The translations under genes were made by a program, and so were the position numbers. A DNA stretch of 64,000 bases from contig JASGJU010000002.1 of assembly GCA_047601245.1 (NCBI GenBank), positions 334,957-398,956 on the forward strand, given 5' to 3'. Numbering within the stretch: position 1 is the stretch's first letter; each line of letters opens with the position of its first letter. The notes under the pieces were generated by a model. It searched no databases, was not told the origin of the DNA, and saw nothing but the letters and a program-made list of their open reading frames with translations. Below, piece by piece: positions 40,053-43,614 of this stretch. The DNA comes from Pseudoxanthomonas sp. (lineage in GTDB: Bacteria > Pseudomonadota > Gammaproteobacteria > Xanthomonadales > Xanthomonadaceae).

Positions 40053-40129
40053 TGCGGGGTGGAGCAGTCTGGCAGCTCGTCGGGCTCATAACCCGAAGGT
40101 CGCAGGTTCAAATCCTGCCCCCGCTACCA
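40053..40129 (+). tRNA. Initiator tRNA-Met(CAT)
   Basis: 77 nt, CAT anticodon, three G-C pairs in the anticodon stem, unpaired 1:72 position (U:U), encoded CCA. Confidence 0.97.
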
Positions 40130-40210
40130 TCATTTTTCCCGCATTGCTCCGCGGGGAACAGAATCGGCGGCAATTCCGGCAACGGGGTTGTCGCCGTTTT
40201 TCGTTGCGGG

Positions 40211-40270
40211 TGCCGGCGTGCCGGTCAGGCCGATCCACGAAGCGGCATCGGTCCCGACGAATCGTCAGGA
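40211..40270 (-). other. Strongly degenerate attC-like site after cassette ORF B
   Basis: Minus strand CCTGACGATTC...CCGATGCCGCTTCGTGGATCGGCC: stop codon in the R'' position and a central hairpin with the short-attC pattern; the R' core is lost. Confidence 0.45.
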
Positions 40271-40537
40271 CGCGCCCGATTTCACGTACAGATAGGCGAG
40301 GCCGCCGCCTTGCGCGGCAATCCAGATCCAGCCGGCCGCCGCAAGCTGGAACCGCGTGCCCGGCGAACGGTGCGGTTGCGTCGCCAGCCAGACGCCGACG
40401 TTCGCGATGGCGAGCGAAACGGCAAGCACGACCAGGCCGCCGCGCGGATGGAGCAGGCCCCATCCAGGATCGACGCGCATGAGTGCCACATAGCCAAGAA
40501 GGACGAGCATCGAAGCCAGGGTGGTAGGGATCTTCAT
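40265..40537 (-). CDS. Small hydrophobic hypothetical membrane protein (putative gene cassette B)
   Basis: MKIPTTLASMLVLLGYVALM..., about three hydrophobic segments, 90 aa. The start was shortened from the ORF-track call so that it follows the attC-like site. Confidence 0.55.
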   Translation of the reverse strand: MKIPTTLASMLVLLGYVALMRVDPGWGLLHPRGGLVVLAVSLAIANVGVWLATQPHRSPGTRFQLAAAGWIWIAAQGGGLAYLYVKSGAS

Positions 40538-40542
40538 GCGAT

Positions 40543-40610
40543 GTTTGGCGTGTGAATTAAACAGCATCACAGAGCGATGCCAGCTTGAATTGTTATGTTG
40601 ATTGTTAGGG
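40543..40610 (-). other. Degenerate attC-like site after cassette ORF A
   Basis: Minus strand CCCTAAC...TTCAAGC-TG-GCATCGC-TCT-GTGATGC-TG-TTTAATTCA..GCCAAAC; the TAA of ORF A lies inside CCCTAAC. Confidence 0.6.
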
Positions 40611-41057
40611 TTCACTGCTAACAAAGTGTTCCAAGAACTCAACCTTCGTGACCTGTGGGGGTAGGTCTGTCAGAGTGAAGATGGACCCGCACTCGCAGTT
40701 GCACATATCGACACTACCTGTGAAATGAGTTTCGTAGGACAAGTGCAAGATGTTGTCTTGCACATAATGCGATGGATTGCGTACATCGAGTCCGCAAGGA
40801 ATCGACGCCTTGACTAGGAAGGTTGTGTCCCGCCCTTTCTCGATACGCTCAATGATTGGGTATTGGGCGGAGCTGCATGTGCTTTGATCTTCAAAGCCGA
40901 GGTGCTTGAAATTCATTTGGTAGCGGAAGATACGGCCTGGCTTGGTGGACCGACTGAGCATGGAAAGAACAGAATCCGAAGCGAACGGTGCGACCATGAT
41001 TGCGGCACCTAGAAGTGCTAAGAGGCCAGTCAATATCGAAATTCGTGTCCAGCACAT
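40605..41057 (-). CDS. Hypothetical exported or membrane-anchored Cys-containing protein (putative gene cassette A)
   Basis: 150 aa, N-terminal hydrophobic segment, CNCEC motif, A/T-rich codons; preceded by GTTAGGG and ending in CCCTAAC. Confidence 0.65.
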   Translation of the reverse strand: MCWTRISILTGLLALLGAAIMVAPFASDSVLSMLSRSTKPGRIFRYQMNFKHLGFEDQSTCSSAQYPIIERIEKGRDTTFLVKASIPCGLDVRNPSHYVQDNILHLSYETHFTGSVDMCNCECGSIFTLTDLPPQVTKVEFLEHFVSSEP

Positions 41058-41289
41058 GTGGATGCTCGGTGTGCGCCCTAACGCCTAATAGGCTTCGCAA
41101 ATGAGATATAGCGTGGATTCTGGGGCGAGCAAAGTTGATGCGTCAATCGGGATTTCCCTACGTGCAGTCGGGGTCTGCGGCGATGGCGGCAGTGTGGCGG
41201 GGATAGGACATTGAGGACGTTGCCGGACAGGAAGATGTCCATATGCGATATGCACGTAAACCCACAATCGTCCCATCCGGTGAGTGAGG

Positions 41290-43614
41290 ATGGCCGTGTT
41301 CCCATTGTTCGGCCGGATGAACGCGGCGGCCTTGCTGGCCGGTGTCTGCCTGTGCCTGTGGTTGCCGGCGTTGCCGCCGTGGTTCCTGTTGCCGGTCCTG
41401 CTGGCCGCGGGCGCATGGGGCGTGTCGCATTGCGATTGGCGGCGGCCGCTGGGCGCATTGCTGCTGGGCTTCGGCTGGGCCGGCTTGCATGCGGCGCATG
41501 GCCTGCATGCGCGATTGCCGGCGGCGTGGGAAAAGCGCGAGGTCGAGGTCAGTGGGCGGGTGGTGGAACTGCCGCAGTTCGAGGCGCGGCGCACGCGCTT
41601 CCTGTTCCGCGTCGATGGCGACGCTTCGCAGCCGCCGCCGCTGCGCGGCCGGCTGTTGCAGTTGTCCTGGTACGACGATTTCGGCGCGGTCGAGCCGGGG
41701 CCGCGCACGCGGCTGCATGCGGGTGCGCACTGGCGATTGGCGTTGCGCGTGCGTGCGCCGCGCGGGCTGCGCAATCCGGGCGGGTTCGACAGCGAGAAAT
41801 ACGCGTTGGCGCGAGGCGTCGGCGCCGTGGGTCACGTCCGCCACGCGCAGGCGGCGATGCAACTGGATGCGCCGCGCGGCATCGACGCATGGCGCGAAGC
41901 CATGTCCTCGCGCATCGCTGCCGACGTGCCGAATGCGTCGTCGCGCTTCGTCCGCGCGCTGGCGCTGGGCGACACCGGCGGCCTGGACGACGGCGACTGG
42001 GAAACCCTGCGCGCCGCCGGGCTGACCCACCTGATCGCGATTTCCGGTTTCCATGTCGGCCTGGTGTCCGGCTTCTTCGCCTTGCTCGCGTCGCTCCTGT
42101 GGCGCGCGTTGCCGGCGCTGGCGCGGCATTGGCCACGGCCGCAGGCCGCGGCGGTCGCGGCGCTGCTCGGTGCAGGCGGTTACGCGGCGGTGGCCGGTTT
42201 CGCGCTGCCGACGGTGCGCACGTTGCTGATGATCGGGGTCGTCGCGCTGGCCTACCTGTCGCGGCGCGGCCTGCGCACCGCCGACGCCTTGGCGCTGGCG
42301 GCCGTCGCGGTGCTGCTGTTCGATCCGTTGGCGGTGCTGGCGGCGGGGTTCTGGCTCAGCTTCGCCGGCGTGGCGTGGCTGCTGTGGTGCCTGCCGCACG
42401 AGGGCAAGCGGCCGCTGTTGAAGGAATTCGTTTCGGCGCAGGGCGTGGCGACGCTCGGGCTGCTGCCGCTGACCGTGGTGCTGTTCGGGCAGGCGTCGCT
42501 GGCCGGGCCGCTGGCGAACCTGCTGGCGATCCCGTGGTGGTCGCTGGTCGTGGTGCCGCTCTCGCTGCTGGGCACGGCGTTGGAGGCGTTGCATGCCGGG
42601 GCCGGTGCATGGGCGTGGAACTGGGCGACGGCGTGTTTCGATCCGAGTTGGTGGCTGTTCTCGGCGATGGCGCAAAGCCGCTTCGCCTTGTGGTGGTTGC
42701 CGGAGGCGCGCGGGTTCGCATTGCCGCTGGCGCTGGTCGCTGCGTTCTGGCTGCTGTTGCCGCGCGGGGTGCCGGGCAAGCCGCTGGCGGCGTTACTGTG
42801 GCTGCCGCTGCTGTGGCCGGATCGCGGCCTGCCCGCGCAGGGCGAGGCACAACTGACCGTGATCGACGTGGGGCAGGGCTTGTCGGTGCTGGTGCGCACG
42901 CAGCGGCATGCATTGCTGTACGACGCCGGGCCGGCGGTACGCGACGGCTTCGACGCCGGCGAACGCGCGGTGGCGCCGGCGCTGCATGCGCTGGGCGTCG
43001 CGCGGCTGGACCGCGCGGTGATCAGCCATGGCGACAACGACCATGCCGGCGGTTTCGAGGCGGTCAAGCGGGTCGTGCCGGTGGCCGCGGCGTGGACGCC
43101 GGCCGGCTCGCCGGTGCCGGCCGAGCATGCCTGCGTGGCCGGGCAGGGCTGGGAATGGGATGGCGTGCGTTTCCGCTTCCTGCATCCCACGCCGCATTTC
43201 CCGTACCTGGGCAACGAGGCCAGTTGCGTGCTGCGCGTCGAAACCGCGCAGGGCGCGGCCTTGCTGGTTGGCGACATCGGTGCGGTGGTCGAACGCATGC
43301 TGGTGGCGCGCGCCGCCGCCGATCTTCGCGCCGACGTGGTGTTGGCCGCGCACCACGGCAGCGGCAACTCGTCCGATCCGGCCTTCGTCGCCGCGACCGG
43401 GGCGCGGCTGGCGCTGGTGTCGGCCGGCTACGGCAACCGTTTCGGCCACCCGGCGCCGGCGGTGGTGGAGCGCTGGCAGCGCGCCGGGGCCGAGGTGCTG
43501 GACACCGCCGACAGCGGCGCGCTGACCGTGTGGCTGGCACGGGACGGGCTGGCGCTGCGCGAACGGCGCGTGGCCGAACCGCGGCTTTGGGATGCCGCGC
43601 GGCGGGCGCCGTGA
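41290..43614 (+). CDS. comEC: DNA internalization competence protein ComEC/Rec2
   Basis: GLTHLIAISGFHVG, GFWLSF, metallo-beta-lactamase domain (DVGQG, SHGDNDHAGG, HHGS). Confidence 0.95.
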   Translation: MAVFPLFGRMNAAALLAGVCLCLWLPALPPWFLLPVLLAAGAWGVSHCDWRRPLGALLLGFGWAGLHAAHGLHARLPAAWEKREVEVSGRVVELPQFEARRTRFLFRVDGDASQPPPLRGRLLQLSWYDDFGAVEPGPRTRLHAGAHWRLALRVRAPRGLRNPGGFDSEKYALARGVGAVGHVRHAQAAMQLDAPRGIDAWREAMSSRIAADVPNASSRFVRALALGDTGGLDDGDWETLRAAGLTHLIAISGFHVGLVSGFFALLASLLWRALPALARHWPRPQAAAVAALLGAGGYAAVAGFALPTVRTLLMIGVVALAYLSRRGLRTADALALAAVAVLLFDPLAVLAAGFWLSFAGVAWLLWCLPHEGKRPLLKEFVSAQGVATLGLLPLTVVLFGQASLAGPLANLLAIPWWSLVVVPLSLLGTALEALHAGAGAWAWNWATACFDPSWWLFSAMAQSRFALWWLPEARGFALPLALVAAFWLLLPRGVPGKPLAALLWLPLLWPDRGLPAQGEAQLTVIDVGQGLSVLVRTQRHALLYDAGPAVRDGFDAGERAVAPALHALGVARLDRAVISHGDNDHAGGFEAVKRVVPVAAAWTPAGSPVPAEHACVAGQGWEWDGVRFRFLHPTPHFPYLGNEASCVLRVETAQGAALLVGDIGAVVERMLVARAAADLRADVVLAAHHGSGNSSDPAFVAATGARLALVSAGYGNRFGHPAPAVVERWQRAGAEVLDTADSGALTVWLARDGLALRERRVAEPRLWDAARRAP

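Follow-up and report, generated by a model that had tools for sequence, protein, structure and literature searches.

A probable degenerate sedentary integron, with its integrase gene deleted and its cassettes frozen, upstream of comEC in Pseudoxanthomonas

The stretch of DNA analyzed in this work (the window) comprises 64,000 nt of the Pseudoxanthomonas sp. contig JASGJU010000002.1 (positions 334,957-398,956; GCA_047601245.1), and we focused our attention on a short segment in which two open reading frames, ORF A and ORF B, lie between a tRNA-Met gene and comEC. This segment is very probably a degenerate sedentary chromosomal integron, located at an intI-comEC locus conserved in Pseudoxanthomonas, from which the integrase gene intI has been deleted, with decayed attC recombination sites and frozen cassettes. 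In the original configuration of the integron the cassettes run leftward from the attI site and the cassette promoter Pc, and intI, in the opposite orientation, runs rightward ahead of comEC (Table 1). The initial annotation had seen here an eroded cassette array fixed in place by mutated GTT cores, and this core idea is supported by the signal of a covariance model (CM) of attC sites and by homologues of ORF A that lie between attC sites elsewhere. The sequence features on which it relied (the two ORFs, GTTAGGG, the TAA inside CCCTAAC, the spacer and the second hairpin) are all present at their positions. The array had also been called CALIN-like (CALIN, a cluster of attC sites that lacks integron-integrases), and indeed no intact intI accompanies it; however, the attI region, a candidate Pc, a stub of intI and an intI of full length carried by the closest relative indicate that it was formerly a complete integron.

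ORF A is the gene that carries the marks of a cassette most completely. Two homologues in metagenomes (62% and 55% identity; L117 and L118) are found in long arrays of co-oriented small genes, both with an intact attC site (85-89 bits) on either side, and another one, in the congener G029 (34% identity), lies within an array of about 20 attC-type sites. The 5' end of the cassette, TTAGGGCGCACACCGA, is common to the ORF A cassette and the two independent metagenomic arrays; the junctions read GGCG/TTAGGGCGCACACCGAGC here and ...GGCG/TTAGGGCGCACACCGATC and ...AGCG/TTAGGGCGCACACCGACT in the metagenomic arrays, the slash marking the crossover point. The sequence before G/TT is attC in the metagenomic arrays and attI here, and this combination of an identical cassette 5' end with differing upstream sequence places the recombination junction between 41082 and 41081. 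By this comparison ORF A is shown to be a bona fide circulating cassette. Its ATG follows 18 nt after the GTTAGGG at 41082-41076, and its TAA (40607-40605) is embedded in CCCTAAC (40610-40604). The GC content, ~70% in the genome, is ~50% in the cassette of ORF A, which belongs to a low-GC islet (45-58% at ~40540-41280).

The product of ORF A, with four invariant cysteines and a VDMCNCE motif, is predicted to be an exported all-beta protein. An AlphaFold model of it (predicted local distance difference test score, pLDDT, 78.8) gave no significant fold match in PDB (best E-value 0.41), and searches of Pfam and NCBIfam returned no match for ORF A or ORF B. The array in G029 (C20:283000-297000) is long and heterogeneous, with its ~20 attC-type sites scoring 13-64 bits; in several of them GTC or ATC replaces GTT, and the array looks as if caught midway through decay.

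Upstream of the junction, some 85 nt (41160-41076) have homologues in this genome ahead of the opening cassette of each of its three other arrays, and also in the interval between intI and the first cassette of ten further Pseudoxanthomonas and Luteimonas integrons. The attI regions of 14 other arrays or integrons are homologous to it, and when 15 attI regions of the two genera were aligned, the blocks GATTGAC, CA.AATCC, GCTA(C/T) and (G/A)GTTAGG were conserved. The attI core GGCG/TTAGGG is intact in the window, with its crossover point between 41082 and 41081, as in an integron attI. A promoter scan flagged in this region a conserved promoter-like sequence facing the cassettes, TTGACG (41146-41141) and CAGAAT (41122-41117) separated by an 18-nt spacer, and we propose TTGACG-N18-CAGAAT as a candidate Pc. 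The small CCCC...GGGG hairpin of the other attI copies is degraded here.

Divergently oriented from the cassettes, and ending 2 nt ahead of the ATG of comEC, there is a remnant of intI made of the first ~10 and the last ~3 codons of the integrase gene, with ~960 nt deleted between them. The start of this stub aligns with the start of intI in two relatives (MKYAREAA in G008 and MQYAREDA in G010), its end aligns with the 3' end of the G008 intI (...GATCGGTGA), and tblastn of the IntI ORF of G008 matches the window at 41141-41278. A complete integron has an adjacent integrase gene, coding for a tyrosine recombinase with the insertion specific to IntI; what is found at this place is a 14-codon stub only. 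When the whole genome was searched with TIGR02249, neither a full-length IntI nor any match above the family cut-off was obtained; the search returned one N-terminal IntI fragment (138.6 bits, model positions 2-113) at C2:2255200, ~1.9 Mb from the locus. No functional intI was thus obtained by the genome search that the initial annotation had suggested. Its statement that there is no integrase is right for the sequence as it now stands, but it needs to be amended in that the locus keeps the 14-codon stub and attI.

The orthologous locus in other genomes carries the parts that are missing here. In the closest relative, a Pseudoxanthomonas metagenome-assembled genome (MAG; G008), the order is comEC, a 336-aa ORF, an attI-like region and cassettes with an attC site of 82.6 bits. 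The 336-aa ORF matches TIGR02249 at 472.5 bits (cut-off 265) over model positions 1-314 of 315, as a full-length integron integrase does. In G010, ~40 codons of intI remain at the same place, with deletion end-points unlike those of the window, and this difference means at least two losses of intI or a stepwise one. Between this genome, G008 and G010 the first cassettes differ as well, which indicates that the integron was still active after these lineages split. An intI gene directly upstream of comEC is found in six genomes: G008, P. kalamensis, Pseudoxanthomonas sp. UTMC 1351, another Pseudoxanthomonas MAG, a Luteimonas MAG and L. aestuarii. This recurring adjacency argues for an old and vertically inherited integron site. 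In both G008 (C53:27000-30136) and G010 (C13:65000-66830) the contig with comEC ends inside the cassette array, presumably because attC repeats break short-read assemblies at these arrays, and in G010 a transposase-like ORF fragment is located at the contig end.

These data bear on a different history, that of a CALIN formed de novo, in which an IntI acting in trans would have inserted cassettes at a secondary site of the attG type by the tRNA gene and the place would never have been an integron platform. We consider this very improbable: insertion at secondary sites is a documented route to CALINs (PMC4889954; bioRxiv 10.1101/2022.09.11.507474) and the other arrays of the genome could supply the cassettes, but a stretch of ~85 nt of attI and promoter upstream of the junction, the intI stub and the full-length intI at the comEC locus of G008 are the parts of a platform.

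For the recombination sites of the degenerate integron we turned to the other arrays of the same genome. Beside the truncated intI at C2:2255200 there is a low-GC array of co-oriented small ORFs parted by nine copies of a 59-nt repeat, GCCTAACAATTCATTCAAGCCGACGCCGCTTCGCGGCGCGGCTTAATTCAGGCGTTAGGC, in which R'' (GCCTAAC) is complementary to R' (GTTAGGC), an inner stem is present and 7 of the 17 pairs show compensatory changes; in this layout the repeat is a textbook attC of the Xanthomonas type. Rfam recognized nothing in the region except the tRNA, and a genome-specific CM was built from the nine intact attC sites. This CM was used to search the window, with filters off. In addition, an ungapped position weight matrix (PWM) was built from 21 intact sites and scanned over both strands of the whole genome (~6.7 million positions). 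Genome-wide, intact attC sites score 74-95 bits with the CM and fall in three arrays (C2:2256212-2260805; C2:2305438-2310104; C2:1133563-1135061), and the low-scoring sites of 24-28 bits are the one that follows ORF A, those that end two arrays distally and a solitary one.

The CM found exactly two full-length matches in the window, both on the minus strand and directly after ORF A and ORF B. The match for attC1 (40600-40539) reached 27.6 bits (E 2e-4 in the window and 0.011 genome-wide) and that for attC2 (40272-40207) 18.6 bits (E 0.037 in the window); all other matches were partial GC hairpins of 9-12 bits, the highest being 11.8. With the PWM, attC1 ranked 26 and attC2 ranked 33, and above them stand 22 high-scoring attC sites (the 21 used for the PWM and the partly decayed array-terminal site C2:2310039), their images on the reverse strand, three more decayed sites that are solitary or lie at array ends, and one unrelated site. 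The attC signal that the initial annotation had proposed to look for with a covariance model is above background with the genome's own model.

Base by base, the two sites look like attC sites in decay. In attC1, 37 of the 55 aligned positions match the consensus and the 18 substitutions are 15 transitions and 3 transversions; the site has also lost 4 nt and gained a partial duplication of 12 nt (CAACATAACAAT). Its R'' (CCCTAAC) is intact, R' has changed from GTTAGGC to GCCAAAC with loss of the crossover triplet, and 13 of the 17 model pairs are kept, although 3 of the 5 R''/R' pairs are broken. In the 67-nt spacer that separates the two ORFs there are TTCAAGC, a hairpin formed by GCATC...GATGC, and TTTAATTCA. 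The more decayed attC2 matches the consensus, ungapped, at 34 of 59 positions, with 18 transitions, 7 transversions and 14 changes from AT to GC; R'' has changed from CCTAAC to CCTGAC and R' from GTTAGGC to GCCGGCA, and again 13 of the 17 pairs are kept. The TGA of ORF B is embedded in this CCTGAC, which occupies the place of the R'' box, and the hairpin CCGATGCCGCTTCGTGGATCGG follows; a precedent for CCTGAC as stop codon is the last, intact attC (attC9) of the main array of the genome. Random similarity would give transitions and transversions at a ratio of ~1:2, and the transition bias of the differences therefore argues that attC1 and attC2 are decayed homologues of attC and not random look-alikes. 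The CM had placed R'' of attC1 at a second copy, CATAAC; this placement was rejected, as the intact homologous cassettes show that the true R'' is CCCTAAC and the second copy belongs to the 12-nt duplication, in agreement with the earlier assignment of the CCCTAAC at 40610-40604 as the original R''.

The GTT/AAC triplet is the point of strand exchange and the sole strictly conserved element of attC sites. Both sites of the window retain the palindrome recognized by the CM (27.6 and 18.6 bits) but not this triplet, and the mutated downstream GTT cores that had been noticed earlier turn out to be a change from GTT to GCC in both of them. Having lost GTT, attC1 and attC2 should no longer recombine and, by the state of the crossover triplet, they appear to be non-functional fossils. 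That ordinary intergenic hairpins resemble attC by chance is an explanation to which we give practically no credence. GC-rich hairpins are common in the genome and partial matches of 9-12 bits occur elsewhere in the window, but chance would have to account for two full-length matches at the predicted positions with high genome-wide ranks, for an identical cassette boundary elsewhere and for an independent attI homology.

The other arrays deserve a description of their own. The main integron (C2:2255200-2261170; L010 10186-16170) has its truncated intI, with 113 N-terminal model positions, adjoining cca, nine intact attC sites and low-GC cassettes, and its attI core is a perfect 25-nt tandem duplication (TAGGCGTTAGCGCGCATGAGGCATT, twice; L010 10758-10807). 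Two further arrays, at C2:2305102-2310600 and C2:1132813-1135880, contain ~10 and 4 intact attC sites, respectively, one located after an OpgG-like gene and the other after murB and EamA-family genes; both are headed by the same attI/promoter region and their distal sites are decayed (24-55 bits). No intI remnant was found by tblastn upstream of these two arrays. The first cassette of the array at C2:2305102 is nearly the second cassette of the main integron (1 aa difference). Solitary attC-like remnants are present at C2:1223245-1223310 (25.7 bits, CM) and at C1:364646-364711 (PWM only, with a rank just above attC2). In total, the genome has four arrays headed by attI and no working integrase.

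The assignment of ORF B as the second cassette, which we infer from where it stands in the array, from an orientation shared with ORF A, from its stop at the R'' position and from the decayed attC2, is the weakest part of the reading. ORF B is predicted to encode a small membrane protein of a family of 87-95 aa found in metagenomes (54-72% identity), and no credible homologue was found in 40 relatives. The closest homologue, of 76.6% nucleotide identity, is on an unrelated contig of 59% GC, from which it follows that ORF B moves horizontally. In that contig (L122, 4001-4273) the flanks are unrelated and the gene, in an AT-rich gap, has a DUF3565 gene on one side and an ORF of 184 aa on the other; this type of small membrane-protein gene appears to be mobile outside integrons too.

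Several points weigh against a decayed array of two cassettes, and those that concern ORF B lead to an alternative, namely that only ORF A is a cassette, that ORF B is an ordinary gene, either native or separately acquired, and that the 18.6-bit site is due to chance or to a hybrid array end. The same gene bounded by attC sites elsewhere, with the same boundary, was found for ORF A and not for ORF B: homologues flanked by intact attC sites, as sought on the suggestion of the initial annotation, were obtained for the former, and none of those of the latter lay in cassette arrays, the five contexts scanned with the genome's own attC model being devoid of attC sites. The GC content of ORF B is host-like (~70%), and attC2 taken by itself is weak, with a CM E-value of ~2 genome-wide. 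The alternative is nevertheless improbable in our judgment, as it leaves to coincidence that attC2 is situated directly after the ORF B stop, on the right strand and with TGA at the R'' position as in attC9, that only one unrelated site in the ~6.7 million positions scored higher than its PWM rank of 33, and that its 34 matches in 59 ungapped positions come with an 18:7 transition bias; in addition, the gene is absent from the 40 relatives and bears signs of horizontal transfer. The remaining points on that side concern other parts of the locus. The tRNA gene and comEC lie ~97 kb from each other in the complete genome G015. Expression from Pc is predicted from the sequence, and among public sequencing runs none was found that contains the stretch. 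A core change shared by several decayed sites (see below) is only loosely explained by simple independent decay.

On the tRNA side the neighborhood seems to have been rearranged. The tRNA gene, preceded by nuoN, resembles an initiator tRNA in its 1-72 mismatch and in the three G-C pairs of its anticodon stem, and the homology with the four relatives compared ends exactly at its CCA end, the DNA downstream being different in each of them; in G008, for instance, a phytase gene and a TonB-dependent receptor gene follow, both absent from this genome. The flank of tRNA-Met is a variable spot in the genus. Genes upstream of comEC in G015 map ~800 kb away in this genome, and from these gene positions a rearrangement is evident. 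The adjacency of a tRNA-fMet to the array, pointed out in the initial annotation, is real in that an initiator-like tRNA adjoins it, but the link appears to be incidental, given the differing flanks and the lack of a 3'-end repeat.

We weighed in this context whether the segment could be a small genomic islet that a phage-type integrase had inserted at the tRNA-Met 3' end. A low-GC segment downstream of a tRNA gene, with a flank that varies in all relatives examined, would fit such an origin. However, a direct repeat of the tRNA 3' end was sought in the window, allowing up to 3 mismatches, and none was found, nor was there a phage-type integrase ORF, so that the hallmarks of a tRNA-linked genomic island are missing; the low-GC part is on the comEC side and not on the tRNA side, and the internal features of the islet are all integron features. 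We regard this origin as extremely improbable.

Part of the course of events in the degenerate integron is shown by these comparisons. Recombination of attI x attC put ORF A in at attI, with the junction precisely at G/TT, between 41082 and 41081, and an internal deletion removed nearly all of intI, leaving the 14-codon stub. Small indels and point mutations with a bias to transitions have eroded the attC after ORF A and the attC-like site after ORF B, with GTT turned into GCC and the R''/R' stem damaged in both. Without IntI and with dead recombination sites, the two cassettes could be neither excised nor shuffled, such that they would now behave as a fixed unit of two ordinary genes, probably transcribed together from the candidate Pc that has been kept; the attC1 hairpin and its T-rich tail may attenuate read-through into ORF B. 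The distal end of the array would owe its contact with the variable region downstream of tRNA-Met to a deletion or rearrangement of later date and not to tRNA-targeted integration.

The decay has a peculiar detail. ACGCC stands for GGCGTT at the R' core in four decayed sites, attC1 (40543-40552), attC2 (40211-40220), the one at the end of the second array (C2:2310531) and the solitary one at C2:1223245, and it corresponds to the change of GTT to GCC together with a G-to-A substitution two bases upstream. The partly decayed sites of G029 carry single T-to-C changes in the triplet. Probably, GC-biased transitions together with the survivorship of sites with a dead crossover suffice to produce the shared ACGCC. 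We think it unlikely, if still worth stating, that the shared "dead core" marks a specific way of permanent cassette fixation rather than independent neutral decay; it could have come about through selection for crossover-site mutations under an active IntI, through recombination in which the partner was non-canonical or through gene conversion between dead sites. If this were true, the four arrays of the genome, all headed by attI and none with a working integrase, would be in keeping with a systematic domestication of cassettes in Pseudoxanthomonas.

Table 1. Features of the degenerate integron and its flanks (positions in the window)
Feature	Position	Strand	Basis or remark
tRNA-Met (CAT), initiator-like	40053-40129	+	flanking gene, outside the element
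array end/tRNA-Met junction	40130-40210	+	terminator-like hairpin for the tRNA, 40165-40196 plus T run
attC2, strongly decayed, shifted to high GC	40211-40270	-	CM, PWM
cassette 2 (inferred): ORF B + decayed attC2	40217-40548	-	position and attC2
ORF B, 90 aa	40537-40265	-	predicted small membrane protein
attC1, decayed	40543-40610	-	CM, PWM, comparison with intact attC of homologous cassettes
cassette 1: ORF A + decayed attC1	40549-41081	-	boundary identical in other arrays
ORF A, 150 aa	41057-40605	-	predicted exported all-beta protein, 4 invariant Cys
attI region + candidate Pc	41076-41160	-	homology to other attI regions
intI stub, 14 codons (MRYARKPTIVPSGE) plus stop	41243-41287	+	alignment with intI of G008 and G010
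comEC (DNA internalisation competence protein)	41290-43614	+	Pfam Competence, DUF4131, Lactamase_B

Read in this manner, the locus offers an unusually complete, base-by-base picture of the death of a chromosomal integron. Arrays may decay beyond the reach of standard attC detection, and surveys with general models likely undercount old cassettes. In Pseudoxanthomonas and Luteimonas the intI-comEC site is a conserved place for an integron, much as the ilvD locus is in Xanthomonas. The current understanding of integrons is left unchanged, and a documented pattern of integron erosion is extended to another genus.

Among known systems, CALINs were defined by Cury et al. (2016), who gave the loss of intI as one of their possible origins (PMC4889954); the definition calls for at least two attC sites by the IntegronFinder model with no intI within ~4 kb, and the sites reported here were found with a genome-specific model at relaxed thresholds. 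The locus resembles CALINs in having two co-oriented attC-type sites and no intact intI nearby. It differs from them in that the decayed sites may fall under the IntegronFinder threshold and in that attI and the intI stub are still recognizable, whereas 95% of the CALINs in that survey had no recognizable intI pseudogene nearby (PMC4889954). With insertions at attG sites (bioRxiv 10.1101/2022.09.11.507474) it shares cassettes located away from an integrase gene; unlike those, it has a genuine attI, a canonical G/TT junction and a locus that carries intI in relatives.

The closest parallel is that of the ilvD-linked integrons of Xanthomonas (Gillings et al., 2005, cited and extended by Colombi et al., 2025; PMC12444791). 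According to Colombi et al. (2025), an ancestral Xanthomonas integron is located downstream of ilvD and its intI was repeatedly truncated or deleted by lineage, the outcome being stable arrays, including integrase-less ones of two cassettes, and CALINs at conserved loci (PMC12444791). Our case differs in the genus, Pseudoxanthomonas, in the place of the platform, which is upstream of comEC and not downstream of ilvD, in attC sites decayed beyond the survival of the crossover triplet, and in the number of attI-headed arrays, four, none of them with a working intI. It agrees with the Xanthomonas integrons in the attC type (~59 nt, GCCTAAC...GTTAGGC), in an intI divergent from the cassettes and truncated or deleted in different lineages, in cassettes mostly of unknown function and in a small stable array, such as the two-cassette integrase-less one of X. 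citri pv. citri.

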